DNA of 64,000 nucleotides from Escherichia coli (GTDB lineage: Bacteria; Pseudomonadota; Gammaproteobacteria; Enterobacterales; Enterobacteriaceae). Numbering within the stretch: position 1 is the stretch's first letter; each line of letters starts with the position of its first letter. Positions 1 to 55,450 of this stretch are shown piece by piece. Under the pieces are notes generated by a model. It did not search any database. It had not been told where the DNA came from and saw only the letters and a list, made by a program, of their open reading frames with translations. The DNA is taken from NCBI RefSeq assembly GCF_045037415.1, contig NZ_CP173438.1. One strand, 5' to 3'. The translations under genes and the position numbers were made by a program.

Positions 1-1281
1 ATTATGGTGGTGACAATCGGGTTAAGTTTCCTTGATTTCACCCTCGCCTTTACGCTGGGCGGCATTATGTTACTGACGCTTTTCCTGATGCCACCACTGT
101 TTTATCGTGCGGGAAAAAGCACCGGGCAAAATCTGACTCATCTTCGCGGGCAGTATCGCCAACAACTGACGGCCTGGCTGCAAGGGCAAGCTGAGCTGAC
201 CATTTTTGGTGCCAGCGATCGTTATCGCACGCAATTAGAGAATACAGAAATTCAATGGCTGGAAGCGCAACGCCGTCAATCTGAACTAACCGCATTGTCG
301 CAAGCGATAATGCTGCTCATTGGCGCGTTAGCGGTGATCCTGATGCTGTGGATGGCGTCTGGCGGCGTTGGCGGCAATGCTCAACCCGGCGCGTTAATTG
401 CCCTGTTTGTCTTCTGCGCGTTAGCCGCGTTTGAAGCGCTGGCACCAGTAACGGGTGCATTTCAGCATCTGGGGCAAGTCATTGCCTCTGCCGTACGGAT
501 CACTGATTTAACGGATCAAAAACCGAAAGTCACCTTCCCTGATACCCAAACTCGTGTTGCCGATCGCGTTTCGCTGACATTACGGGATGTTCAGTTCACT
601 TATCCGGAGCAATCCCAACAGGCACTTAAAGGGATTTATCTTCAGGTAAACGCCGGGGAACATATTGCGATTCTCGGGCGAACCGGATGCGGCAAGTCAA
701 CACTGTTACAACTGCTGACCCGCGCATGGGACCCGCAACAGGGCGAGATTTTGCTTAACGATAGTCCCATAGCCAGCCTGAATGAAGCGGCTCTACGACA
801 GACCATCAGCGTTGTTCCCCAGCGAGTGCATCTGTTTAGCGCCACGCTGCGTGATAATCTGTTACTCGCCTCGCCTGGTAGTAGTGATGAGGCTCTGGCG
901 GAGATCTTGCGTCGCGTTGGTCTGGAGAAGCTGCTCGAGGATGCAGGTCTCAACAGTTGGTTAGGTGAAGGCGGACGCCAGCTCTCCGGTGGTGAACTGC
1001 GCCGTCTGGCTATCGCCCGTGCGCTGTTACATGATGCGCCGCTGGTATTGCTGGATGAACCTACAGAAGGCTTAGATGCCACAACCGAAAGTCAGATCCT
1101 TGAATTGCTTGCAGAAATGATGTGCGAGAAAACGGTGTTAATGGTCACCCATCGACTTCGCGGGCTCTCTCGTTTCCAACAAATAATAGTGATGGACAAC
1201 GGGCAAATTATTGAGCAAGGTACTCACGCAGAACTGCTTGCCAGACAGGGGCGTTATTACCAGTTTAAGCAGGGTTTGTAA
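1..1281 (+). CDS. cydC: Cysteine/glutathione ABC exporter subunit CydC, 5'-truncated by window edge (C-terminal ~425 aa present)
   Basis: ORF 4..1281 stays open in frame to position 1; Walker A GRTGCGKST, ABC signature LSGGE, Walker B LLDEPT; followed by aat and infA as in E. coli. Confidence 0.9.
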   Translation: MMVVTIGLSFLDFTLAFTLGGIMLLTLFLMPPLFYRAGKSTGQNLTHLRGQYRQQLTAWLQGQAELTIFGASDRYRTQLENTEIQWLEAQRRQSELTALSQAIMLLIGALAVILMLWMASGGVGGNAQPGALIALFVFCALAAFEALAPVTGAFQHLGQVIASAVRITDLTDQKPKVTFPDTQTRVADRVSLTLRDVQFTYPEQSQQALKGIYLQVNAGEHIAILGRTGCGKSTLLQLLTRAWDPQQGEILLNDSPIASLNEAALRQTISVVPQRVHLFSATLRDNLLLASPGSSDEALAEILRRVGLEKLLEDAGLNSWLGEGGRQLSGGELRRLAIARALLHDAPLVLLDEPTEGLDATTESQILELLAEMMCEKTVLMVTHRLRGLSRFQQIIVMDNGQIIEQGTHAELLARQGRYYQFKQGL

Positions 1282-1322
1282 GCTATTATTGAACGATCCG
1301 ACTTGCGTGGAGTTTTGCGGTC

Positions 1323-2027
1323 ATGCGCCTGGTTCAGCTTTCTCGCCATTCAATAGCCTTCCCTTCCCCGGAAGGCGCATTACGTGAGCCTAACGGCCTG
1401 CTGGCACTGGGGGGCGATCTTAGCCCTGCGCGCCTATTAATGGCTTATCAGCGTGGTATTTTCCCGTGGTTTTCTCCTGGCGACCCCATCCTCTGGTGGT
1501 CGCCCGATCCCCGCGCGGTGTTATGGCCAGAATCACTGCATATCAGCCGTAGTATGAAGCGATTTCATAAACGCTCACCCTATCGTGTCACGATGAATTA
1601 CGCTTTTGGTCAGGTCATCGAAGGCTGTGCCAGCGATCGCGAAGAAGGAACCTGGATCACGCGTGGCGTGGTCGAAGCCTACCATCGCCTTCACGAACTC
1701 GGTCATGCCCACTCCATTGAAGTCTGGCGTGAAGATGAGCTTGTCGGCGGTATGTACGGCGTGGCCCAGGGAACACTATTTTGTGGCGAGTCCATGTTCA
1801 GCCGGATGGAAAATGCGTCCAAAACGGCGCTTCTGGTCTTCTGTGATGAATTTATCCGTCATGGCGGTAAACTTATCGACTGCCAGGTCCTTAACGATCA
1901 CACAGCATCGCTTGGTGCCTGCGAAATTCCCCGCCGGGATTACCTTAATTATCTCAATCAAATGCGCCTCGGACGATTGTCGAATAATTTCTGGGTACCT
2001 CGATGCTTGTTTTCACCACAAGAATGA
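1323..2027 (+). CDS. aat: Leucyl/phenylalanyl-tRNA--protein transferase
   Basis: 234-aa ORF recognised as Aat; conserved position between cydC and infA. Confidence 0.9.
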
Positions 2028-2308
2028 ATGTTTTCGGCACATTTCTCCCCAGAGTGTTATAATTGCGGTCGCAGAGTTGGTTACGCTCATTACCCCGCTG
2101 CCGATAAGGAATTTTTCGCGTCAGGTAACGCCCATCGTTTATCTCACCGCTCCCTTATACGTTGCGCTTTTGGTGCGGCTTAGCCGTGTGTTTTCGGAGT
2201 AATGTGCCGAACCTGTTTGTTGCGATTTAGCGCGCAAATCTTTACTTATTTACAGAACTTCGGCATTATCTTGCCGGTTCAAATTACGGTAGTGATACCC
2301 CAGAGGAT

Positions 2309-2530
<222 letters not shown>

Positions 2531-2568
2531 TTGTTTTACCGCCTGATGGGCGAAGAGAAAGAATGAGT

Positions 2569-2598
2569 AAAAGGTCGGTTTAGCCGGCCTTTTTATTT
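2569..2598 (+). terminator. Putative rho-independent terminator of infA
   Basis: Stem aaaaggucgg/ccggccuuuu (one U-G wobble) with 5-nt loop, followed by a T-run (ctttttatttt). Confidence 0.5.
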
Positions 2599-2713
2599 TG
2601 TGATATGTATGGAGTACTTTAGAAGTATAAGTCCGTAACTTGTCTCGATGTAGATATACTGCACAACTTGTTTACAGTATGAGCAAACAATAATTATCAT
2701 AAAAATTCTTCTT

Positions 2714-2742
2714 GACCGTTTTATTCCAACTCCCTATAGTAG
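2714..2742 (+). promoter_or_regulatory. Putative sigma-70 promoter of serW
   Basis: TTGACC, 17-bp spacer, TATAGT, followed by a GC-rich discriminator (gcgccccgttgcccccc) typical of stable-RNA promoters; about 40 nt upstream of the mature tRNA 5' end. Confidence 0.4.
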
Positions 2743-2783
2743 CGCCCCGTTGCCCCCCATGAGGTCAGGCAAAAAAACAATTT

Positions 2784-2871
2784 GGTGAGGTGTCCGAGTG
2801 GCTGAAGGAGCACGCCTGGAAAGTGTGTATACGGCAACGTATCGGGGGTTCGAATCCCCCCCTCACCGCCA
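2784..2871 (+). tRNA. serW: tRNA-Ser (anticodon GGA), class II tRNA with long variable arm, 88 nt, CCA encoded
   Basis: Acceptor stem GGTGAGG/CCTCACC, anticodon loop CTGGAAA (GGA), T-arm GGGGG-TTCGAAT-CCCCC, discriminator G plus CCA. Confidence 0.92.
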
Positions 2872-2883
2872 TATTTAAAGAAG

Positions 2884-2911
2884 AGCTCGTACGAAAGTAC
2901 GGGCTTTTTTT
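2884..2911 (+). terminator. Putative rho-independent terminator of serW
   Basis: Hairpin cgtac-gaaa-gtacg followed by gggc and a T8 run. Confidence 0.5.
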
Positions 2912-2922
2912 TCGCATTTTAT

Positions 2923-2943
2923 CTGCCTGTACGGCAGTGAACT
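2923..2943. repeat. Direct repeat copy 1 (21 bp, ctgcctgtacggcagtgaact) with internal palindrome CTGCC-N5-GGCAG
   Basis: Exact 21-bp match to copy 2, 60 bp downstream. Confidence 0.7.
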
Positions 2944-2982
2944 TGTCATTATTGGCAGACAGGATCCGCGGCAATTTCTAAG

Positions 2983-3003
2983 CTGCCTGTACGGCAGTGA
3001 ACT
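2983..3003. repeat. Direct repeat copy 2 (21 bp, ctgcctgtacggcagtgaact)
   Basis: Exact 21-bp match to copy 1. Confidence 0.7.
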
Positions 3004-3152
3004 CAAATACTACACGTTTAGCCCGTTGTTAATAAAGCAAAACCATCTCAATCTCCTGCTGCCACCCTTTTTTATCCTTACCTACCCGCAGCACTAATTA
3101 TCAATAACTTACCATCATCATCAAAAAAAGGGTCTGAACCTCCTCCCCCCAT

Positions 3153-3190
3153 AAATAAAAAGTCCGTAACCCCTGACGAGATTACGGACT
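3153..3190 (-). terminator. Putative rho-independent terminator of clpA
   Basis: Perfect 9-bp stem agtccgtaa/ttacggact with 12-nt loop; on the minus strand it is followed by a U-rich run (forward ataaataaaa), 25 nt downstream of the clpA stop. Confidence 0.5.
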
Positions 3191-3214
3191 TCACCAACCT
3201 ACCAGACAATCAGA

Positions 3215-5491
3215 TTAATGCGCTGCTTCCGCCTTGTGCTTTTGTGCACTCTGGAATCCGTAAGTCAGCTCATTTTTCTCTTTATCCAGCGCGACGGTGA
3301 CCTGACCGCCGTCCACCAGCGAACCAAACAGCAGTTCGTTGGCGAGCGGTTTTTTCAGGTTGTCCTGGATGACACGCGCCATCGGACGTGCGCCCATTGC
3401 CCGGTCGTAACCTTTCTCGGCCAGCCAGTTACGCGCTTCCTGGCTCACTTCCAGAGAAACACCTTTCTGATCCAACTGAACCTGCAACTCGACGATGAAT
3501 TTATCCACCACCTGATGGATCACGTCGGTTGACAGATGATCGAACCAGATAATGTTGTCGAGACGGTTACGGAATTCCGGTGTAAAGATCTTCTTGATCT
3601 CTTCCATCGCATCGGTGCTGTTATCCTGGTGGATAAGACCAATGGATTTGCGCTCAGTTTCCCGTACCCCGGCATTAGTGGTCATCACCAGCACCACGTT
3701 ACGGAAGTCCGCTTTGCGTCCGTTGTTATCGGTCAGCGTACCGTTATCCATCACCTGCAACAGAATATTGAACACGTCCGGGTGCGCTTTCTCGATTTCG
3801 TCCAGCAGCAGCACCGCATGTGGATGCTTGATGACCGCATCAGTCAGCAAACCGCCCTGATCAAAACCAACGTATCCCGGAGGCGCACCAATCAGACGGC
3901 TGACGGTATGGCGTTCCATATACTCGGACATATCAAAGCGCAGAAGCTCAATGCCCAACGCTTTCGAAAGCTGTACCGTCACCTCTGTTTTCCCGACCCC
4001 AGTAGGGCCGGCAAACAGGAACGAACCGACCGGTTTATGTTCGTGACCTAAACCTGCACGCGCCATCTTAATGGCTTCAGTCAGCGCCTCAATGGCTTTA
4101 TCCTGACCGAAGACCAGCATTTTCAGGCGATCGCCGAGGTTTTTCAGGGTATCGCGGTCACTCTGAGAAACACTCTTCTCTGGAATGCGTGCAATACGGG
4201 CCACCACGGATTCAATATCCGCCACATTAACGGTTTTCTTGCGTTTGCTTACCGGCATCAGACGTGCGCGAGCGCCCGCTTCGTCGATAACATCAATCGC
4301 TTTATCCGGCAGATGACGATCGTTAATGTATTTCACCGCCAGCTCTACCGCCGCACGCACCGCTTTTGCGGTATAACGCACGTCGTGGTGCGCTTCATAC
4401 TTCGGTTTCAGGCCATTGATGATTTGAACAGTTTCTTCGATTGACGGTTCAGTAATATCAATTTTCTGGAAGCGACGCGCCAGAGCACGGTCTTTCTCGA
4501 AAATGTTGCTGAACTCCTGATAGGTTGTCGAACCAATTACGCGGATTTTACCGCTGGAGAGCAACGGTTTAATCAGGTTAGCCGCATCGACCTGGCCACC
4601 AGACGCTGCACCCGCACCGATAATGGTGTGGATCTCATCAATAAACAGGATGCTGTTAGTGTCCTGCTCCAGCTGCTTGAGCAACGCTTTAAAACGTTTT
4701 TCAAAGTCGCCGCGATATTTTGTGCCCGCTAACAGGGAACCGATATCGAGAGAGTAAATCGTACAGTCAGCCATCACTTCCGGCACATCGCCCTGAACAA
4801 TTCGCCATGCAAGCCCCTCCGCAATCGCGGTTTTACCGACACCAGACTCCCCCACCAGCAGCGGGTTGTTTTTACGGCGACGGCAGAGAACCTGAATAGC
4901 ACGCTCCAGCTCCTTCTCACGACCAATTAGTGGGTCGATTCCGCCCACTCGCGCAAGCTGATTCAGGTTCGTCGTGAAATTCTCCATACGTTCCTCCCCA
5001 CCAGCTTGTTCTTCGCTGTTTGGCTGGCTGCCAGGATCAGAAGACTGTGTCGGCTCGTCTTTACGCGTGCCATGAGAGATAAAGTTCACCACATCGAGAC
5101 GGCTGACTTCATGTTTGCGCAACAGATATGCCGCCTGCGACTCCTGTTCGCTAAAGATAGCGACCAGAACGTTTGCACCGGTAACCTCATTGCGACCGGA
5201 GGACTGGACATGGAAGACCGCACGTTGCAGTACACGCTGAAAACTCAACGTCGGCTGTGTGTCGCGCTCCTCTTCACTGGCAGGCAGAACGGGTGTGGTT
5301 TGTTCAATAAAGGCTTCCAGTTCCTGACGGAGCGCAACCAAATCTACAGAACACGCTTCCAGCGCCTCCCGGGCAGATGGGTTACTGAGCAGCGCCAGTA
5401 ACAAGTGCTCGACGGTCATAAACTCATGACGGTGCTCGCGCGCTCTGGCGAAAGCCATATTTAAACTGAGTTCCAGTTCTTGATTGAGCAT
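3215..5491 (-). CDS. clpA: ATP-dependent Clp protease ATP-binding subunit ClpA (758 aa)
   Basis: ORF 3215..5506; known N-terminus [14 protein letters not shown] begins at ATG 5491; two AAA+ Walker A motifs GESGVGKT and GPTGVGKT. Confidence 0.95.
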
Positions 5492-9634: not shown

Positions 9635-10627
9635 ATGGTTAAATCGACGTCATGTATAACCATTGATTTCATGAATATGTCGCAGCTAACTGAACGGACC
9701 TTTACGCCATCTGAATCTCTCAGCAGCCTGTCACTTTTTCTTAGTCTGGCACGAGGACAGTGTCGGCCGGGTAAATTCTGGCATCGCCGTAGTTTTCGCC
9801 AGAAATTTTTGCTGCGCTCGTTGATTATGCCGCGTTTAAGCGTTGAGTGGATGAACGAACTTTCCCACTGGCCTAATCTCAATGTGTTGTTAACGCGCCA
9901 GCCGCGACTGCCTGTACGTCTACATCGCCCTTACCTTGCGGCGAATCTTAGCCGTAAGCAATTGCTGGAGGCGTTACGTTACCATTATGCGTTACTCCGC
10001 GGGTGTATGTCGGCGGAAGAATTCAGCTTATATTTGAATACCCCCGGGCTGCAACTGGCGAAGCTGGAAGGCAAAAACGGCGAGCAGTTCACGCTTGAGC
10101 TGACCATGATGATCTCAATGGATAAAGAAGGTGACAGCACCATCCTGTTCCGCAACAGCGAAGGTATTCCTCTGGCAGAGCTCACTTTTACCCTGTGTGA
10201 ATATCAGGGGAAAAGGACGATGTTTATTGGCGGACTGCAAGGCGCAAAATGGGAAATTCCACACCAGGAAATCCAGAATGCGACGAAAGCCTGCCACGGG
10301 CTATTTCCCAAACGCCTCGTGATGGAAGCGGCCTGTCTGTTTGCCCAACGTTTGCAGGTAGAGCAGATTATTGCCGTCAGCAATGAAACGCATATTTACC
10401 GCAGCCTGCGTTATCGCGATAAAGAAGGCAAGATCCATGCCGATTACAACGCTTTCTGGGAATCGGTTGGCGGCGTATGTGATGCTGAACGCCATTACCG
10501 CCTTCCAGCACAGATAGCACGAAAAGAGATTGCCGAAATCGCCAGTAAAAAACGGGCTGAATACCGTCGGCGCTATGAGATGCTCGACGCTATTCAGCCA
10601 CAAATGGCCACGATGTTTTGTAGTTAG
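9635..10627 (+). CDS. ybjX: VirK/DUF535-family protein YbjX
   Basis: 330-aa ORF, length and position match YbjX. Confidence 0.8.
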   Translation: MVKSTSCITIDFMNMSQLTERTFTPSESLSSLSLFLSLARGQCRPGKFWHRRSFRQKFLLRSLIMPRLSVEWMNELSHWPNLNVLLTRQPRLPVRLHRPYLAANLSRKQLLEALRYHYALLRGCMSAEEFSLYLNTPGLQLAKLEGKNGEQFTLELTMMISMDKEGDSTILFRNSEGIPLAELTFTLCEYQGKRTMFIGGLQGAKWEIPHQEIQNATKACHGLFPKRLVMEAACLFAQRLQVEQIIAVSNETHIYRSLRYRDKEGKIHADYNAFWESVGGVCDAERHYRLPAQIARKEIAEIASKKRAEYRRRYEMLDAIQPQMATMFCS

Positions 10628-12282
10628 TCGGCCCGACCGCGCGCCAGCCACAGCACGCGTGAGAACATTTTTTTCAGCAGCGTCGGTACGGAGTCCACAC
10701 CACGACGTCCGGCCTCCATTGCCACTTCAATGGCAAGATCGGGTTTGGAAGAGCGATGGATCGCTTTCGAGATAATTTTGCGCAGATTCATCGGTATATT
10801 TTCCGGGATTTGCGCCACGCGGTGGAACACATCGGAAAATCCCTGGCGATACATAAAATGTTCCATATCCAGCGCCGGTAACGCCGTTAAATGTTCTCGT
10901 TCGGCTTCCCGATCATTATTCAACAGGCTGCGTACCGTAGCGGCATATTTCTTCCCTGCTTCATCGCCATCGACCAGTACATGCCATTCAATCCCCATTC
11001 GCCGGGCAAATTTAACCAGTGGCTTTAGCCCGGACTGGGCAAACTCAATGACCTTGATCCCTTCGGCATCAAAATGATGTCCGCACTGACGCGCCAGTTC
11101 ATTGATAACCCAGGTTTCCGTTTCCCCTTCCACCAGCAGCCAACAACGGGCAAACAGCGATGACGGACGGTTAAAACGAATGTGAAAGGAGATGCGTCGG
11201 CTATCTTCGGTACTCAAGCCACTCGGTCCCAGACGCCAGGCGGCAACGCGAGAGGACTCACGTACCAGTCGGCAAACATGCTCTACCGGCGTTAACGAAA
11301 GCAACTCTCCCGAGTTGGTAGTAGCGATGCGCTGCAATGGCAGAAGGTTCAACAGATGCCAGGCAACTGAAAGCATAATGGGGTGCAAACGGGTTTCTGG
11401 ATCTTCGATCAGCAACAATGGACGGGCGTCTTTATCCAGTCGCAATGTGCCTTTTGCCTGCAACAAAGTAGCAAACAGGCCGAGCAAAATAACCCGATAC
11501 GAGCGCCCTCCAGGTCGGTCAATCATCCGGTTGATGATATCCAGATAGCGCCAGCTTCGTTGCTCATTGCTGGCTCGCCGCCGCATTAAACGATATCGCG
11601 CCTGTCCAGCTCCCTGCTCAGAAAAATAATGCTCAAGCAGTTGCACCATTGCGGAAAGTCCCTGACGAATCTGTCCATCAGAGAGATTTTGCGGATGTGA
11701 GGACAACTCACGGGCGAGGAAATCGAGCTGGCGCGCGGTGACTTCCACATTGGGGACATTTGGCACCGTGCCGTTACGAATACGGCGCATAAAACGGGCA
11801 TCACGCAAGCGCAGCACCGGCATTAAACGCACCAGATGACGAGCCTGATCGTTAATATCCTCAACATCAATCGGATGTCCGTCTTTATCGAGAAAACTGC
11901 GCAGTGTCATCACGCTGCCGTCTTCCGCACTCTCCCCTTCCAGACGATAAAAAATACGGTGATAACCATCGGTGCATGGCGTCCAGCACGCTTCCAGCGG
12001 CCGATAGCGGCGAACCCGATGTCGGCCTGGCAGCGATTCGCGGAAGGTCAAAATAATATGCAGATGATGTTCTCGCCCGTTGATATCTCCCGGCGGGAAC
12101 CAGAAATCATCGCGCTCAAAATGGTAGAGATCTGATTCTGGCGATAGCAGCAGGGTTAAGGCGTCCAGCAAGCTGGATTTACCCCACGCGTTCTCCCCAA
12201 TCAGGACGTTGTTTTGTTCCAGCATCAACGACAAACGGTTGATACCGCGAAAACCCACAATTTCAACGCGCTCAAGAATCAT
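10624..12282 (-). CDS. ybjD: OLD-family ATP-dependent endonuclease homolog (N-terminal ABC-like ATPase, C-terminal Toprim)
   Basis: 552-aa ORF; Walker A GENAWGKSS near the N-terminus; C-terminal LVEGETE ... VDGDEAG resembles the Toprim acidic signature. Confidence 0.85.
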   Translation of the reverse strand: MILERVEIVGFRGINRLSLMLEQNNVLIGENAWGKSSLLDALTLLLSPESDLYHFERDDFWFPPGDINGREHHLHIILTFRESLPGRHRVRRYRPLEACWTPCTDGYHRIFYRLEGESAEDGSVMTLRSFLDKDGHPIDVEDINDQARHLVRLMPVLRLRDARFMRRIRNGTVPNVPNVEVTARQLDFLARELSSHPQNLSDGQIRQGLSAMVQLLEHYFSEQGAGQARYRLMRRRASNEQRSWRYLDIINRMIDRPGGRSYRVILLGLFATLLQAKGTLRLDKDARPLLLIEDPETRLHPIMLSVAWHLLNLLPLQRIATTNSGELLSLTPVEHVCRLVRESSRVAAWRLGPSGLSTEDSRRISFHIRFNRPSSLFARCWLLVEGETETWVINELARQCGHHFDAEGIKVIEFAQSGLKPLVKFARRMGIEWHVLVDGDEAGKKYAATVRSLLNNDREAEREHLTALPALDMEHFMYRQGFSDVFHRVAQIPENIPMNLRKIISKAIHRSSKPDLAIEVAMEAGRRGVDSVPTLLKKMFSRVLWLARGRAD

Positions 12283-21920: not shown

Positions 21921-22934
21921 ATGAAGGTACTGGTTACCGGCGCCACCAGCGGCTTAGGTCGAAACGCGGTAGAGTTTTTATGCCAGAAAGGCATCAGCGT
22001 GCGAGCGACCGGTCGCAACGAGGCAATGGGTAAATTGCTGGAAAAAATGGGCGCAGAGTTTGTTCCGGCGGATCTGACCGAGTTGGTCTCATCACAAGCT
22101 AAAGTGATGCTCGCGGGCATTGATACGCTGTGGCACTGCTCCAGCTTTACCTCGCCCTGGGGGACACAACAGGCTTTCGATCTGGCTAACGTTCGCGCCA
22201 CTCGCCGCCTGGGTGAATGGGCTGTCGCCTGGGGTGTGCGTAACTTTATTCATATCTCTTCTCCCTCCCTGTACTTCGATTATCACCACCATCGCGATAT
22301 TAAAGAAGATTTTCGCCCTCACCGCTTCGCCAACGAGTTTGCCCGCAGCAAAGCAGCCAGCGAAGAAGTGATCAATATGCTTTCGCAGGCGAATCCACAA
22401 ACGCGCTTTACTATTCTGCGCCCACAAAGTCTGTTCGGACCGCACGATAAAGTCTTTATCCCTCGTCTGGCGCATATGATGCATCACTACGGCAGTATTC
22501 TGTTACCGCATGGCGGCAGTGCGCTGGTCGATATGACCTACTATGAAAATGCCGTGCACGCCATGTGGCTGGCAAGCCAGGAAGCGTGCGATAAGCTACC
22601 TTCCGGGCGTGTGTACAACATCACCAACGGCGAGCATCGCACACTGCGCAGCATCGTGCAGAAGCTGATCGACGAGTTGAATATTGACTGTCGTATTCGT
22701 TCGGTTCCTTACCCGATGCTGGATATGATCGCCCGCAGCATGGAGCGTTTAGGCCGCAAGTCAGCAAAAGAGCCGCCGCTGACCCACTACGGCGTCTCCA
22801 AGTTGAATTTTGACTTTACGCTGGATATTACGCGTGCGCAGGAAGAGTTAGGTTATCAGCCAGTCCTCACCCTGGATGAAGGTATCGAGAAAACTGCCGC
22901 CTGGCTGCGCGACCACGGAAAACTGCCGCGCTAA
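21921..22934 (+). CDS. ybjS: Putative NAD(P)-dependent epimerase/dehydratase YbjS (337 aa)
   Basis: ORF 21858..22934; N-terminus [13 protein letters not shown] at ATG 21921. Confidence 0.8.
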
Positions 22935-23761
22935 TCCTGCCCGTATTTCTCCAGCAACGCTTCGGCAATCGCCTGAGTTTCTGCATCCGCTTCGCCGTTA
23001 TATAACGTCGGGCGGAAATGCATCTGGAACGCCATAATCACACGCCGCTGCTCGCGCGGAGTCATATCAGGCTTTACGTCATAACCATAACGCGCCAAAA
23101 GCTCCAGCAATGACGCGGTCTCTACCGGTGTGTGCGGCGCGCGCCCGGCAAGGTAAAAGTTCACCCGCTGCGCATCCGGCCAGGCACCAATCCCCTGCTG
23201 TGCCAGTTGCTGCCAGGGAAATAATGGCCCCGGATCGTCTTTGCGCTGTGGCGCAATATCCGCATGTGCTACTACGTTTTCCGGCTTGATGTGATAACGG
23301 GCAATAATATCTTTCGCCAGCGGAATAAGCGCCTGAATCTGTGCCGGTTCAAACGGGGCAAAATATTTCACTCCCGCCGATTTTTGCCAGCCACGGTTTT
23401 CCAGCTCAATGCCAATAGAGGTGTCGTTAAGACGCGTTGCCCCGCGCCAGGCGCTAATCCCCGCATGCCAGGCCAGTTCTTGTTCCGGCACCAGTTGCCA
23501 GATGCGCGGTTTACCGTTGTATCGCGGTGGCACCGCAGGGACCAGATAATGCGAGCTGACCTGCTTATCGGTCAGTGTCGCCAGCGAGCTATCAAAATCA
23601 TCTGCGGTGTAGTGGATCACCAGCACTTTAATGCGCGGATACGCCGCCTGCGCCTGGCGTCGGGTATCAAGCTGATATCCCTCTTTCTCGACAATGCCTT
23701 TTTCGCCTGTGCACCCTGCCAGTAACAGAGCGGCAGCGACCAGCCAGAAGACTCTTCTCAT
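22931..23761 (-). CDS. amiD: N-acetylmuramoyl-L-alanine amidase AmiD (lipoprotein, Amidase_2 family)
   Basis: 276-aa ORF with lipoprotein signal (LLLAGCTG); stop overlaps the ybjS stop convergently. Confidence 0.9.
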
Positions 23762-28765: not shown

Positions 28766-28772
28766 GATTCAG

Positions 28773-28797
28773 AAAGCCGCACCTGCGGCTTTTTTAT
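28773..28797. terminator. Bidirectional terminator hairpin between convergent artJ and rlmC
   Basis: Stem aaagccgca/tgcggcttt followed by a T-run; overlaps the rlmC stop codon. Confidence 0.55.
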
Positions 28798-47948: not shown

Positions 47949-48575
47949 ATGATTACGCTGTGGGGTCGGAATAATTCAACCAACGTAAAAAAAGTATTGC
48001 TGACGCTCGAAGAACTGGAACTACCTTATGAGCAAATTCTCGCGGGCCGTGAGTTTGGGATAAATCACGATACTGATTTTCTGGCGATGAACCCTAACGG
48101 GCTGGTGCCGTTGTTGCGTGACGACGAAAGTGATCTCATTCTTTGGGAATCAAACGCCATTGTCCGCTATCTGGCGGCACAGTACGGGCAAAAACGCCTG
48201 TGGATCGACTCACCGGCACGTCGTGCGGAAGCAGAAAAATGGATGGACTGGGCAAACCAGACGCTCAGTAATGCTCATCGCGGGATCCTGATGGGATTAG
48301 TCAGAACACCACCGGAAGAGCGCGATCAGGCCGCCATTGATGCCAGTTGCAAAGAGTGCGACGCCCTGTTTGCCCTGCTCGATGCGGAATTGGCAAAAGT
48401 AAAATGGTTCTCAGGCGACGAGTTTGGTGTGGGCGATATCGCTATCGCACCGTTCATCTACAATTTGTTTAACGTTGGCCTGACCTGGACACCGCGTCCA
48501 AATCTGCAACGCTGGTATCAGCAACTCACTGAACGCCCCGCAGTGCGCAAAGTGGTGATGATTCCCGTTAGCTAA
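47949..48575 (+). CDS. gstB: Glutathione S-transferase GstB (YliJ), 208 aa
   Basis: ORF 47943..48575; N-terminus [16 protein letters not shown] at ATG 47949. Confidence 0.9.
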
Positions 48576-49687
48576 TTGCGTGGGCTAACTTTAAGTAATT
48601 CCCCACTGGACTCGTCGGTGAGAACGTATAAATAACCGTCGGGTCCAGTGCGAACATCACGAATTCGTTGCCCTCTGTCCGTTAAAATACGGCCATCTTC
48701 TGTCACTTTGTCGCCGTTGACGCTCATCACAATGACATCTTTATCTTTCAGCGCGCCAATAAATAATTTTTGCTGCCACTGGGGGAATTTGTCGCTGTTA
48801 TAGAAAGCCATGCCGCTCACGGCGGGCGAATCTTTCCAGTAAAAAACAGGTTGCTCGGTCCCGGCGACGATCTCCCCTTTCGCTTCCGGTATCTTAAAGC
48901 CCGAATAGTTGATTCCCCAGGTTGCCAGCGGCCAGCCGTAGTTTTTGCCTTTTTGCGGAATATTAATTTCATCACCACCGCGCGGGCCATGTTCATTCAG
49001 CCATAGTGCATTACTCCACGGATTCATCGCCATTCCTTGCGGATTACGAATGCCATAAGACCAGATCTCGGCGCGCACACCGGATTCCTTTATAAAAGGA
49101 TTATCATCCGGGATTTCTCCCAGGTCGGTCAGACGCACCAGTTTGCCCTGTAATTTATCCAGATCCTGCGCCGTCGGGCGCTGATTGTTTTCGCCCAGAG
49201 CAATAAAAAGATAACCTTTACCGTCAAATACCATCCGCCCGCCAAAATGGTTGCCGGTAGACAGTTTTGGCATCTGACGAAAGACGGTGCGGAAGTCGGT
49301 CACTTTTGAGAGATCATCACTTAAGCGACCATAACCCACAGCAGTTCCGGCTTTGCCATCATCGCCAACTTCGGAATAACTTAACCAGATGCGGCGCGAC
49401 TGAGCAAAATCGGGCGCTAAAACCACGTCCAGCAGGCCGCCCTGCCCGTGCGCCCAAACGTCCGGCACTCCGGAAAGCGGCGCAGATAATCCTTTTCCTG
49501 CTTGCCAGTGACGCAACTCGCCGCCGCGCAGAGTGATTAACATACCGTGATTATCGGGTAAAAAGGCCAGCGCCCAGGGATGGTCGAGTTTGTCTTGCAG
49601 TACTTCGACATTTACCGTTGCAGGAGCCGCCCAGAGAGCGGAAGAAAGACAAATAAGGGGCACAAGGAAAAAGGATTGTCGATGCAT
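48572..49687 (-). CDS. yliI: Soluble aldose sugar dehydrogenase YliI (PQQ-dependent beta-propeller)
   Basis: 371-aa ORF with signal peptide; stop overlaps the gstB stop convergently. Confidence 0.9.
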
Positions 49688-53101: not shown

Positions 53102-55450
53102 CTACTCTTTTACTAATTTTCCACTTTTATCCCAGGCGGAGAATGGCATGGGTTTCTGGTACAGATACCCCTGAGCCTGAACACATCCTAATTTGATTAA
53201 TTCACGCGCAACGTCTTCGCTCTCTACGCCTTCCGCAATCACCGGGATCCGGTTATAGCGTGCCAGATCGAAAATAATGCGCACAATTTTTCCCGCAGTA
53301 CCGAAAATATCGCCGGTAAATTGCGAATCCACCTTTATACTGTCTGGATTAATTTCATAAAAACGTTTCAGGTTTGACAAACCGGTGCCAAAGTCATCAA
53401 TCGATACCCGTACCCCTTGTTTACGCAGTTGTTCAATATTGAGATAGAAATGTTCATTAATTCGCTCGATCACGGTTTCGGTGATCTCAACACAAAGGCT
53501 GTTCGCCTTCAGGCCATTTTCTTTCATGATGGTAGTAAAACGCTCATGAAAGTGTGGTTCGTTTAACTGCCAGGGCGAAACATTAATATGCAGTAAGAAA
53601 TCATCCTTCAGCGACGCACGCTGACTAAAATGTCTGAATTCACCCATCGCGGTTTTAATAATTTGATAGCCCAGCTCATTGATAAACCCGATATCTTCAG
53701 CAATGGTAATGAACTTCAGCGGTGAAATAATCCCCCGCTCCGCAGACACCCAACGGCACAACGCCTCCGCGCCCAAAATGGTGCGGGTGTTAATATCAAC
53801 AATCGGTTGATAGACCAGGAATAGTTCGCCAATTTCCATTGCATGGCGAATATTACGCGCAATCCAGATATTCTCTTCTATTTCGTTGAGTTTCGCATCA
53901 TCACAGAAAATAAACTCTGAGAACATATGGTTGCGGATACTGGAAATCGCCAGTTTCAGCTTTTCTGCGTAACTCCAGGCGTTTTCCCCCTGCAAAGGTT
54001 CACAAATAGCAGACTTATGGATGCGCAGATTGCGGTAGCCAAAACTGCTGTCAAAATCGTTTACCGTCGCTATCTTACGGGTAAACGTCTGTACATTTTC
54101 CCGGCACAGGAGTAAATAGAGATCGGCATTAAATGTCACGATATCGCAGCATTGCGCATATTTCTCGGCAATTCGCTGACACAATTTCCTGACGATTTTA
54201 TTGCGTTCATCAACACCAAACACCGCTTCCACAGCTTCCAGACCACACAGTTTGATGATCCCCACAGCCAGATACTGATTATTGTTGGACTCAATAATCG
54301 CCATATTTTTAATAAAACCGCTTTCCTGATCGTAAGAGATCAGCGAGAGCAATTTATTTGCCCGTTCAATTTCAGCATCTTTCATTTCCGCGATCGAATT
54401 TTTGATGCTGATAATCTCTTTCGCATCGCCTTCACGAATCTTCAGGGCCTCGATTTGATCCGTAGAGTCAGGCAAAAACGCCAGCGTATTGACCAAATCT
54501 GTCATTTCAGAAAATTGACGACGGAAAACTCGAGTGGTCATTAAATAAACCACCAGCAATACGATAATAATGAAAGCAAACGGCAGATAAAAAAGTTTAT
54601 CTGATGCGTTCAATAAATTACCACCAGGATAATAAAAATAGATTTCGAATAATGCGTTGTTTGGCACCGCTGATGTTTTTTCAATATATTCCGTATCGAC
54701 AGAATCAATAATATTATAATTACCTTCGCTATTATAAATAATCAATTTTTCACGAGCGAGTTGATTCTTAGCAATGATCTCATGACCTTGCTTTAAAAAT
54801 AGAACTTCATCATTAGCGCTGATGTGATCAAGATACTCGTTCAGATATCGCCAGTTTAAATCGACATGAATTTTATCTACCGCTAACAAATCATGATCTT
54901 TGCCGTTGATGTGTAGCGTAAAAGAGATACATTTTTTACCCGGACGATCAAAGCAATTGTATGCCGGGTTCCAGCTGTTGTTAGAGTCATCTGAAGCCAT
55001 CGACCACGGTCGTTTCGATGGGTTAAAATCGGCAAAAATAACCCGCCCTGACTCGTCGACAAGCGGTCCATTTACTTGTTCCTGATGATAAACAACGATT
55101 TTATCATTCGCCCTCCGCGAAAAGAGATAATATTTATTATCATCAAGTACCAGTCCCACCGAGTCTAAAAATGGCATCATTTCCATTTTCAGAATCACGG
55201 CACGTTGAATCTCCTCTGTATTTTTTAATAAATACAGTGAGTCCTTTAATGTCAGGGCCGAACGTTCAATATCTTTAAAGAAATAGCCAACGTTTTTCTG
55301 AATAAGTTCAAAGCGGCTATCGGCACGTTTTACCGCGCGTTCCGATACCAGTTGATAGTTAATGATGAAAAAAAGACCAATAAATGACAATGCTGCCAAT
55401 AAAAATAAAATTATCAGCCTTATCTTTATCTTTTCGTATAAACTCAGCAT
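53102..55450 (-). CDS. pdeI: c-di-GMP phosphodiesterase PdeI (YliE), membrane-anchored EAL protein
   Basis: 782-aa ORF; N-terminal TM segments with periplasmic region; C-terminal EAL domain (GAEALCRW). Confidence 0.9.

Follow-up and report, generated by a model that had tools for sequence, protein, structure and literature searches.

The DNA analysed here is a stretch of 64,000 nt (the window) of an Escherichia coli chromosome. It is the counterpart of the cydC-moeB segment of K-12, in inverted orientation, and 2.3 kb of it are 100% identical to many sequenced strains. It contains three pairs of convergent genes, ybjX/ybjD, ybjS/amiD and gstB/yliI, whose members end on each other. According to a six-frame list of open reading frames (ORFs) and the raw sequence, the plus-strand ORFs end at positions 10627, 22934 and 48575, and the minus-strand ORFs at 10624, 22931 and 48572. 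The same six 3' ends and gene names are present in the RefSeq annotation of an identical E. coli strain and in that of K-12 MG1655. Hence, the 4-nt overlaps TTAG, CTAA and CTAA that the original prediction had placed at these junctions were matched by the raw sequence, the ORFs and RefSeq. The features of the three junctions are listed in Table 1.

Table 1. Genes, shared tetramers, termination features and double-stranded RNA (dsRNA) sites at the three tail-to-tail junctions.
Feature	Window position	Strand	MG1655 position	Remarks
ybjX	9671-10627	+	918128-919120	VirK/DUF535 family; K-12 annotation start at 9635
ybjD	10624-12282	-	916473-918131	DUF2813/AAA/OLD-like TOPRIM ATP-dependent endonuclease, 552 aa
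TTAG tetramer, ybjX/ybjD	10624-10627			ybjX TAG 10625-10627 (+); ybjD TAA 10624-10626 (-)
Candidate intrinsic terminator of ybjD	10546-10604	-		45-nt hairpin, then CGUUUUUU; antisense in the ybjX CDS
Rho region, ybjX-strand RNA in ybjD	~11509	+	917246 (-)	Score 15.9, p 7e-53; 882 nt past ybjX stop
ybjS	21921-22934	+	905740-906753	NAD-dependent epimerase/dehydratase family, 337 aa
amiD	22931-23761	-	904913-905743	N-acetylmuramoyl-L-alanine amidase, 276 aa; last gene of ybjQ-amiD
CTAA tetramer, ybjS/amiD	22931-22934			ybjS TAA 22932-22934 (+); amiD TAG 22931-22933 (-)
Weak hairpins past amiD	22886-22930	-		Followed by GUUUUCUC; just past amiD stop, within ybjS; marginal, chance level
p19-captured RNase III dsRNA sites in ybjS	22122-22853			Coordinates transferred from U00096.2; Huang et al. 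2020, PMC7373196
Rho region, amiD-strand RNA in ybjS	~22556	-	906118 (+)	Score 4.3; 375 nt past amiD stop
Rho region antisense in amiD	~23585	+	905089 (-)	Score 3.9; 651 nt past ybjS stop
gstB	47949-48575	+	879854-880480	Glutathione S-transferase, 208 aa
yliI	48572-49687	-	878742-879857	Aldose sugar dehydrogenase, 371 aa
CTAA tetramer, gstB/yliI	48572-48575			gstB TAA 48573-48575 (+); yliI TAG 48572-48574 (-)
p19-captured dsRNA sites, 3' part of yliI	48706-48991			131-416 nt past gstB stop; PMC7373196
Rho region, gstB-strand RNA in yliI	~49023	+	879406 (-)	Score 3.8; 451 nt past gstB stop

Elsewhere in the window, an Rfam match to CRISPR-DR4 (50 bits) is located at 2920-3002 on the minus strand, between the tRNA-Ser gene serW and clpA. 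It contains two copies of a repeat starting with GTTCACTGCCGTACAGGCAG, separated by a 32-nt spacer, the second copy being degenerate at its 3' end; these repeats look like the orphan type I-F mini-array known from the E. coli clpA-infA locus. The pdeI gene is an intact ORF of 782 aa (53102-55450, minus strand), and it is annotated as frameshifted in strain AR_0089 (locus L002, 9694-12041), which is otherwise identical to the window.

A trivial explanation for the overlaps would be an annotation artefact, in which one stop codon per pair is mis-assigned and the genes do not truly overlap. All six are genuine opposed protein-coding genes, judged by RefSeq and by orthologues whose domains and lengths are conserved. 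Each 3' end is set by the first stop codon in frame, the C-termini of AmiD and YbjS are conserved to the last residue in orthologues, GstB has 208 aa in nearly all orthologues and YbjD has 552 aa in all loci tested. Nothing was found in favour of an artefact, which is refuted by the sequence and has next to no chance of being correct. The original prediction also allowed for the overlaps to vanish upon reassignment of starts or stops. They do not: start-codon reassignment cannot remove them because they are fixed by in-frame stop codons, and the choice of the ybjX start changes the length of its product (318 versus 330 aa) without affecting the 3' overlap. Neither protein of a pair is longer than in non-overlapping orthologues, since the AmiD and YbjS C-termini are equal at offsets from -4 to +113, and ortholog lengths agree (YliI, 371 versus 370 aa; GstB, 208 aa; YbjD, 552 aa).

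When two stop codons face each other, TAA, TAG or TGA on the plus strand is combined with TTA, CTA or TCA (the minus-strand stop as read on the plus strand), and sharing one, two or three bases is impossible. The shortest arrangement that suits both stops is 4 nt long and reads [C/T]TA[A/G]. All three tetramers of the window belong to this permitted set, and each strand reads a stop (TAG/TAA, TAA/TAG and TAA/TAG). The 4-nt stop/stop class of convergent overlaps was reportedly described by Fukuda et al. in 2003, by Johnson & Chisholm in 2004 and by Kingsford et al. in 2007. Lillo & Krakauer (2007, PMC2174442) attributed the jump at length 4 among convergent overlaps to CTAA, TTAA, CTAG and TTAG, and counted 58 convergent overlaps in E. 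coli. The same authors already stated that the terminators of such genes must sit within the partner CDS, and 23 of the 116 genes in those overlaps had a predicted rho-independent terminator there (PMC2174442).

The original prediction considered three such overlaps in 64 kb to be notable. The window contains 11 convergent junctions, with gaps of 343, 72, -4, -4, 28, 29, 175, 40, 46, -4 and 46 nt, so that three are at -4. The percentages in Table 4 of Lillo & Krakauer fit several totals of E. coli 4-nt overlaps, and we therefore sampled the genome directly, using nine evenly spaced 50-kb chunks of MG1655 (450 kb in all). Seven of the 65 convergent junctions in this sample were at -4 (10.8%, with a wide 95% confidence interval of 4.4-20.9%), which amounts to one per 64 kb; the pairs are pnuC/zitB, mntP/rlmA, exoX/ptrB, mltF/tadA, scpC/srsR, yqgC/yqgD and yicG/ligB. 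The same seven, together with the three of the window, were recovered by an annotation-free search for long ORFs that end on one of the permitted tetramers. The expected count in the window is about 1.0, and the probability of finding three or more is 0.08 (Poisson) or 0.107 (binomial), uncorrected for the approximately 70 windows per genome. Because of this base rate, and because other sampled chunks have 2 of 10 and 2 of 8 junctions at -4, the local count, although nominally a little high, is unremarkable and the claim was not confirmed. As a class, -4 junctions are enriched: they make up 10 of the 76 junctions examined, and every other single short offset occurs 0-3 times. This enrichment is the length-4 peak already described, -4 being the most frequent arrangement known for adjoining bacterial genes that face each other.

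A regional cause, for instance if deletions had compacted this part of the chromosome more strongly, would make the local cluster real. The proportion of 3/11 against 10.8% genome-wide, and the tightness of several other window junctions (28-46 nt), would fit such a cause, but the uncorrected probabilities and the similar counts in other chunks led us to reject it. Moreover, the authors of ExcludonFinder found that excludons are not regionally enriched (PMC12288877), and we consider a regional cause highly improbable.

Where the convergent genes of the window are spaced, most junctions have a clear hairpin terminator in a gap of 28-72 nt. That of artJ/rlmC is a single 28-nt hairpin (28766-28793). 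In K-12, the artJ/rlmC spacer measures 198 nt (locus L003, 23647-23844) and contains a two-REP BIME flanked by what appear to be two copies of the hairpin of the window; within the species, this bidirectional terminator is polymorphic for an insertion.

At the three overlaps, a terminator between the partners is precluded because intergenic DNA is absent. The original prediction that there is no room for a terminator is correct in this respect, but it overlooked that terminators may lie inside the partner CDS, as the candidate hairpin of ybjD in ybjX illustrates. Scans around the three overlaps turned up nothing beyond weak 5-bp stems, no better than those of shuffled sequence, and no bidirectional hairpin shared by both transcripts was found at these overlaps, which have no spacer either. 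A convincing hairpin plus T-run was absent downstream of five of the six stops, ybjD being the exception. Its candidate terminator is located about 70 nt past the ybjD stop and exceeds in stability every other hairpin with a T-tail on both strands of the window (-26.7 kcal/mol, z -5.9); none of 200 shuffled sequences folds as well. Its long, interrupted stem and the 2-nt gap ahead of the U-run make it atypical as a terminator. Only Escherichia has the hairpin in a strong form (-25.7 and -24.0, against -9 to -16 in Salmonella, C. freundii, Kluyvera and Intestinirhabdus), and outside Escherichia the T-run, which corresponds to the YbjX Lys-Lys codons, was kept in Salmonella and C. freundii alone. 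A search of the supplements of Adams et al. (PMC7815308) by coordinate and gene name gave no Term-seq end for its U-tract. We consider it a plausible candidate for a lineage-specific intrinsic terminator.

The original prediction further stated that the transcripts must either read antisense into the partner or be stopped by Rho or some other mechanism. Read-through and Rho termination are both supported by the Rho termination regions determined by DirectRNA-seq with and without bicyclomycin (Supplementary file 2 of Adams et al. 2021, PMC7815308); this is one data set with 800-nt windows, so that positions are coarse, and the window coordinates were transferred from MG1655. For four of the six directions, a Rho region lies 375-882 nt past the upstream stop, antisense in ybjD, ybjS, amiD or yliI. 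The region antisense in amiD may reflect read-through from ybjS or a separate antisense RNA. We could reproduce the scores from the read counts, which for 917246 are 299, 18, 568 and 545. The 800-nt upstream window of this site is wholly inside ybjD, so that the 3' part of ybjD is covered by antisense RNA in the absence of bicyclomycin too. The table of Adams et al. (PMC7815308) contains no Rho-region entry for ybjD into ybjX or for yliI into gstB, and its companion tables gave no Term-seq 3' end for any of the six genes when searched by gene name and expected coordinates. A stretch richer in C than in G is present at +200 to +500 past the ybjX stop (C-G 0.09-0.15); it is mild for gstB and ybjS and absent for amiD, this skew being only partly informative as a predictor of rut sites.

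Antisense Rho regions are also reported at spaced pairs, namely deoR/dacC in both directions, ybjH into mdfA and cspD into macB (PMC7815308). The spacers of these neighbours (deoR/dacC, ybjH/mdfA and cspD/macB) are 40-72 nt long and contain hairpins. Since spaced neighbouring pairs show both read-through and Rho termination, the overlap is not the cause of either.

Head-on collisions of RNA polymerases, rather than Rho, might mainly drive termination at the junctions. Wang et al. 2022 (bioRxiv 10.1101/2022.10.23.513370), citing Ju et al. 2019, describe collision as a model for the bidirectional terminators of convergent E. coli pairs, and both partners of each pair are transcribed. However, the model needs a stem-loop in the overlapping termination region, by which the collision site is fixed, and there is none at the three overlaps; bicyclomycin raises read-through 3.8- to 16-fold (PMC7815308), and the weaker partners are expressed at a low level. 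We therefore regard collisions as the main driver as very unlikely.

Antisense RNA at these pairs is also evident from other published data. The pairs yliI-gstB, amiD-ybjS and ybjD-ybjX are all among the 165 convergent MG1655 excludons of ExcludonFinder (NAR 2025, PMC12288877), a listing that stands for detection in at least 50% of the RNA-seq samples, and two pairs of our MG1655 sample, pnuC-zitB and exoX-ptrB, are in the same list. Wild-type sense/antisense values in reads per million (RPM) are 33.6/32.8 for yliI, 105.9/4.1 for gstB, 95.7/2.1 for amiD, 47.0/15.9 for ybjS, 80.8/38.5 for ybjD and 519/7.4 for ybjX (Huang et al. 2020, PMC7373196). From these values, the more strongly expressed gene of each pair invades the weaker one. 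The low antisense level in ybjX is compatible with the candidate ybjD terminator, although it is no proof of it.

In the same study, p19-captured dsRNA sites were recovered within ybjS and the 3' part of yliI (Table 1). Additional dsRNA sites near the 5' end of amiD form a cluster labelled 'Full & New AS' (Huang et al. 2020, PMC7373196), which may correspond to an independent antisense RNA. A very abundant p19-captured dsRNA hot spot is located near the start of ybjX (gene total 1250-3400 RPM; PMC7373196), at MG1655 ~918,977-919,001 (U00096.2 918200-918224), roughly window positions 9750-9780. This hot spot has no relation to the 3' overlap and points to a strong antisense RNA in the region where macA and ybjX diverge.

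These overlapping RNAs raise the possibility that the junctions are selected convergent excludons, in which the spacer-free arrangement is kept since mutual antisense transcription makes expression of the partners mutually exclusive, through RNA polymerase collision and/or RNase III cleavage of dsRNA; for example, high ybjX expression would hold down ybjD. Besides the listing of all three pairs, the levels of antisense RNA in ybjD and yliI, 48-98% of sense, and the captured dsRNA (PMC7373196) would agree with this explanation, as would the argument of the ExcludonFinder authors that excludon pairs are functional and more syntenic than others (PMC12288877). On the other hand, the sense reads of the invaded genes yliI, ybjD and ybjS are not raised in rnc mutants (Table S1c of Huang et al. 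2020, PMC7373196), an observation that speaks weakly, at best, against mutual exclusion, and the spaced neighbouring pairs described above show the same read-through. What these data show at the three pairs is overlapping RNA and dsRNA; the antisense interference expected by the original prediction, in the sense of an effect on the partner's expression, is putative. The comparison of the junctions among relatives bears directly on this question.

We fetched 80 Enterobacteriaceae loci around amiD, in 62 of which ybjS is located downstream on the opposite strand. The offset between the two stops is -4 in 24 of these loci (Escherichia, most Citrobacter, Salmonella diarizonae and several Klebsiella), 0-7 nt in 12 and 18-158 nt in 14, while in the other 12 it is at least 384 nt, with another gene in between. 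Among the 24 loci at -4, the tetramer is TTAA in 15, TTAG in seven, and CTAG and CTAA in one each. At every offset, AmiD ends in ...LLEKYGQ(G/D) and YbjS in ...DHGKL(P/H)R, each followed by the stop, and the length of both C-termini is constant; the states differ solely in the amount of DNA between, or common to, the two stops. The bases shared at -4 are the central TA and the third positions of both last sense codons. Judged from this comparison, the amiD/ybjS overlap is the zero-spacer limit of this series and does not look like a functional element.

Three Citrobacter loci (L011, L012 and L015) carry a REP/BIME-like palindromic insert of 100-113 nt (GCCTGATGGCGC...TATCAGGCCTAC, -36 to -45 kcal/mol) directly after the amiD stop (locus position 3831), which splits amiD from ybjS; sister Citrobacter species carry the -4 overlap at this very site. 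These inserts illustrate a route by which a spacer-free junction gains a structured spacer. The amiD-ybjS spacer of Kosakonia and relatives (L029-L034, L038, L039 and L055) is about 600 nt long and, as looked at in L030 only, contains a 194-aa ORF on the amiD strand with an apparent signal peptide.

The gstB/yliI junction varies as well. E. coli, C. freundii and Salmonella enterica share the -4 overlap, E. fergusonii has an offset of +4 and Cronobacter one of 0, and C. sedlakii has another gene in place of yliI. The yliI gene of Salmonella enterica (locus L094, 3124-3811) is degraded to fragments of 57, 52 and 51 aa, the first two with GSDH matches, and the stop of this remnant still interlocks with that of gstB by 4 nt. 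The retention of the gstB overlap with a dead yliI, and the variable spacers of amiD/ybjS and gstB/yliI among close relatives (-4, 0, +4, 7 and REP inserts) with unchanged proteins, argue against selection on the overlap itself. Taken together with the points above, selection of the three junctions as excludons is unlikely in our judgement.

The third pair is more constant. The offset of ybjX/ybjD is -4 in all five other lineages compared (Escherichia sp., Kluyvera, Salmonella, C. freundii and Intestinirhabdus; YbjX of C. amalonaticus, P0132, was outside this comparison as a protein without a contig on record). YbjX has diverged to 54-58% identity while the overlap was kept in every lineage tested, a conservation that speaks for the excludon explanation and is the single feature that could reflect selection rather than mere stickiness of the arrangement. 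Kluyvera ascorbata (locus L099, 2501-4585) has a tandem duplicate of DUF535/ybjX, in which only the copy adjoining ybjD has the 4-nt overlap. As a selected excludon, ybjX would send an antisense RNA, limited by Rho, about 0.9 kb into ybjD, which encodes an OLD-family nuclease. The ybjX gene is PhoP-activated in Salmonella and E. coli, and therefore envelope-stress induction of ybjX could silence ybjD if this pair were a selected excludon. We consider this specific proposal decidedly improbable.

Instead, the three junctions are very probably ordinary members of the known -4 convergent class, in which the spacer was lost, the overlap is kept without a function, and the partner-internal transcript ends are mostly due to Rho. 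According to this explanation, both genes would lose all spacer DNA until their stops interlock in the only tetramer allowing it, [C/T]TA[A/G]. The central TA belongs to both stops and the outer two bases are wobble positions of the last sense codons, so that the coding cost of the arrangement should be almost nil. The -4 state would be hard to leave because a mutation of the TA destroys both stops at once. Being cheap as well as hard to leave, it would accumulate and persist without needing a function.

With no intergenic DNA, each mRNA would run on as an untranslated antisense RNA in the partner; once the ribosomes have left at the stop, Rho could load and end transcription a few hundred nt inside the partner. 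The published bicyclomycin data show such Rho-dependent ends inside the partner for the ybjX, gstB and amiD transcripts, and ybjS transcripts are probably ended by Rho inside amiD. The ybjD transcript probably terminates at the lineage-specific intrinsic terminator predicted in the ybjX CDS. The overlapping RNAs and the dsRNA would then be a result of run-on antisense transcription. For annotation, this means that a tail-to-tail overlap of -4 is a normal junction and not a signal. Where the spacer is missing, some antisense RNA across the 3' end of the partner is assured, and terminators of such genes are to be searched for within the partner CDS, as in the case of the ybjD candidate.

Compared with known systems, the three pairs share features with several arrangements. 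The excludon concept reportedly goes back to Sesto et al. in 2013. The three pairs are named as excludons by ExcludonFinder (PMC12288877), and dsRNA has been captured in the invaded genes. However, the defining feature of excludons is reciprocal repression, whereas these pairs are known here by overlapping RNA and dsRNA, and their overlap is in coding sequence, not in UTRs.

The geometry is also that of convergent genes with a bidirectional terminator in between (Wang et al. 2022; Ju et al. 2019), which most spaced junctions of the window match; the three -4 junctions differ in having no spacer and no hairpin at the overlap. The ATGA start/stop overlaps, exemplified in the window by macB/macA and amiD/ybjQ, resemble the -4 junctions in that two signals share bases within 4 nt, but they join genes on the same strand and have a translational function, whereas translation cannot be coupled by a tail-to-tail overlap. 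Rho-dependent suppression of read-through and antisense transcription is said to have been described by Peters et al. in 2012. Bicyclomycin-sensitive regions lie within the partner for four of the six directions (Adams et al. 2021, PMC7815308), although this is not specific to overlapping pairs, since the spaced neighbours behave alike.

The tetramer rule, its frequency, the question of termination, the Rho-dependent ends and the overlapping transcripts at these pairs are already in the literature. With the known 4-nt stop/stop class, the three junctions share exactly the same arrangement, without any difference, and the locus-level comparative detail is the sole addition made here to that class.
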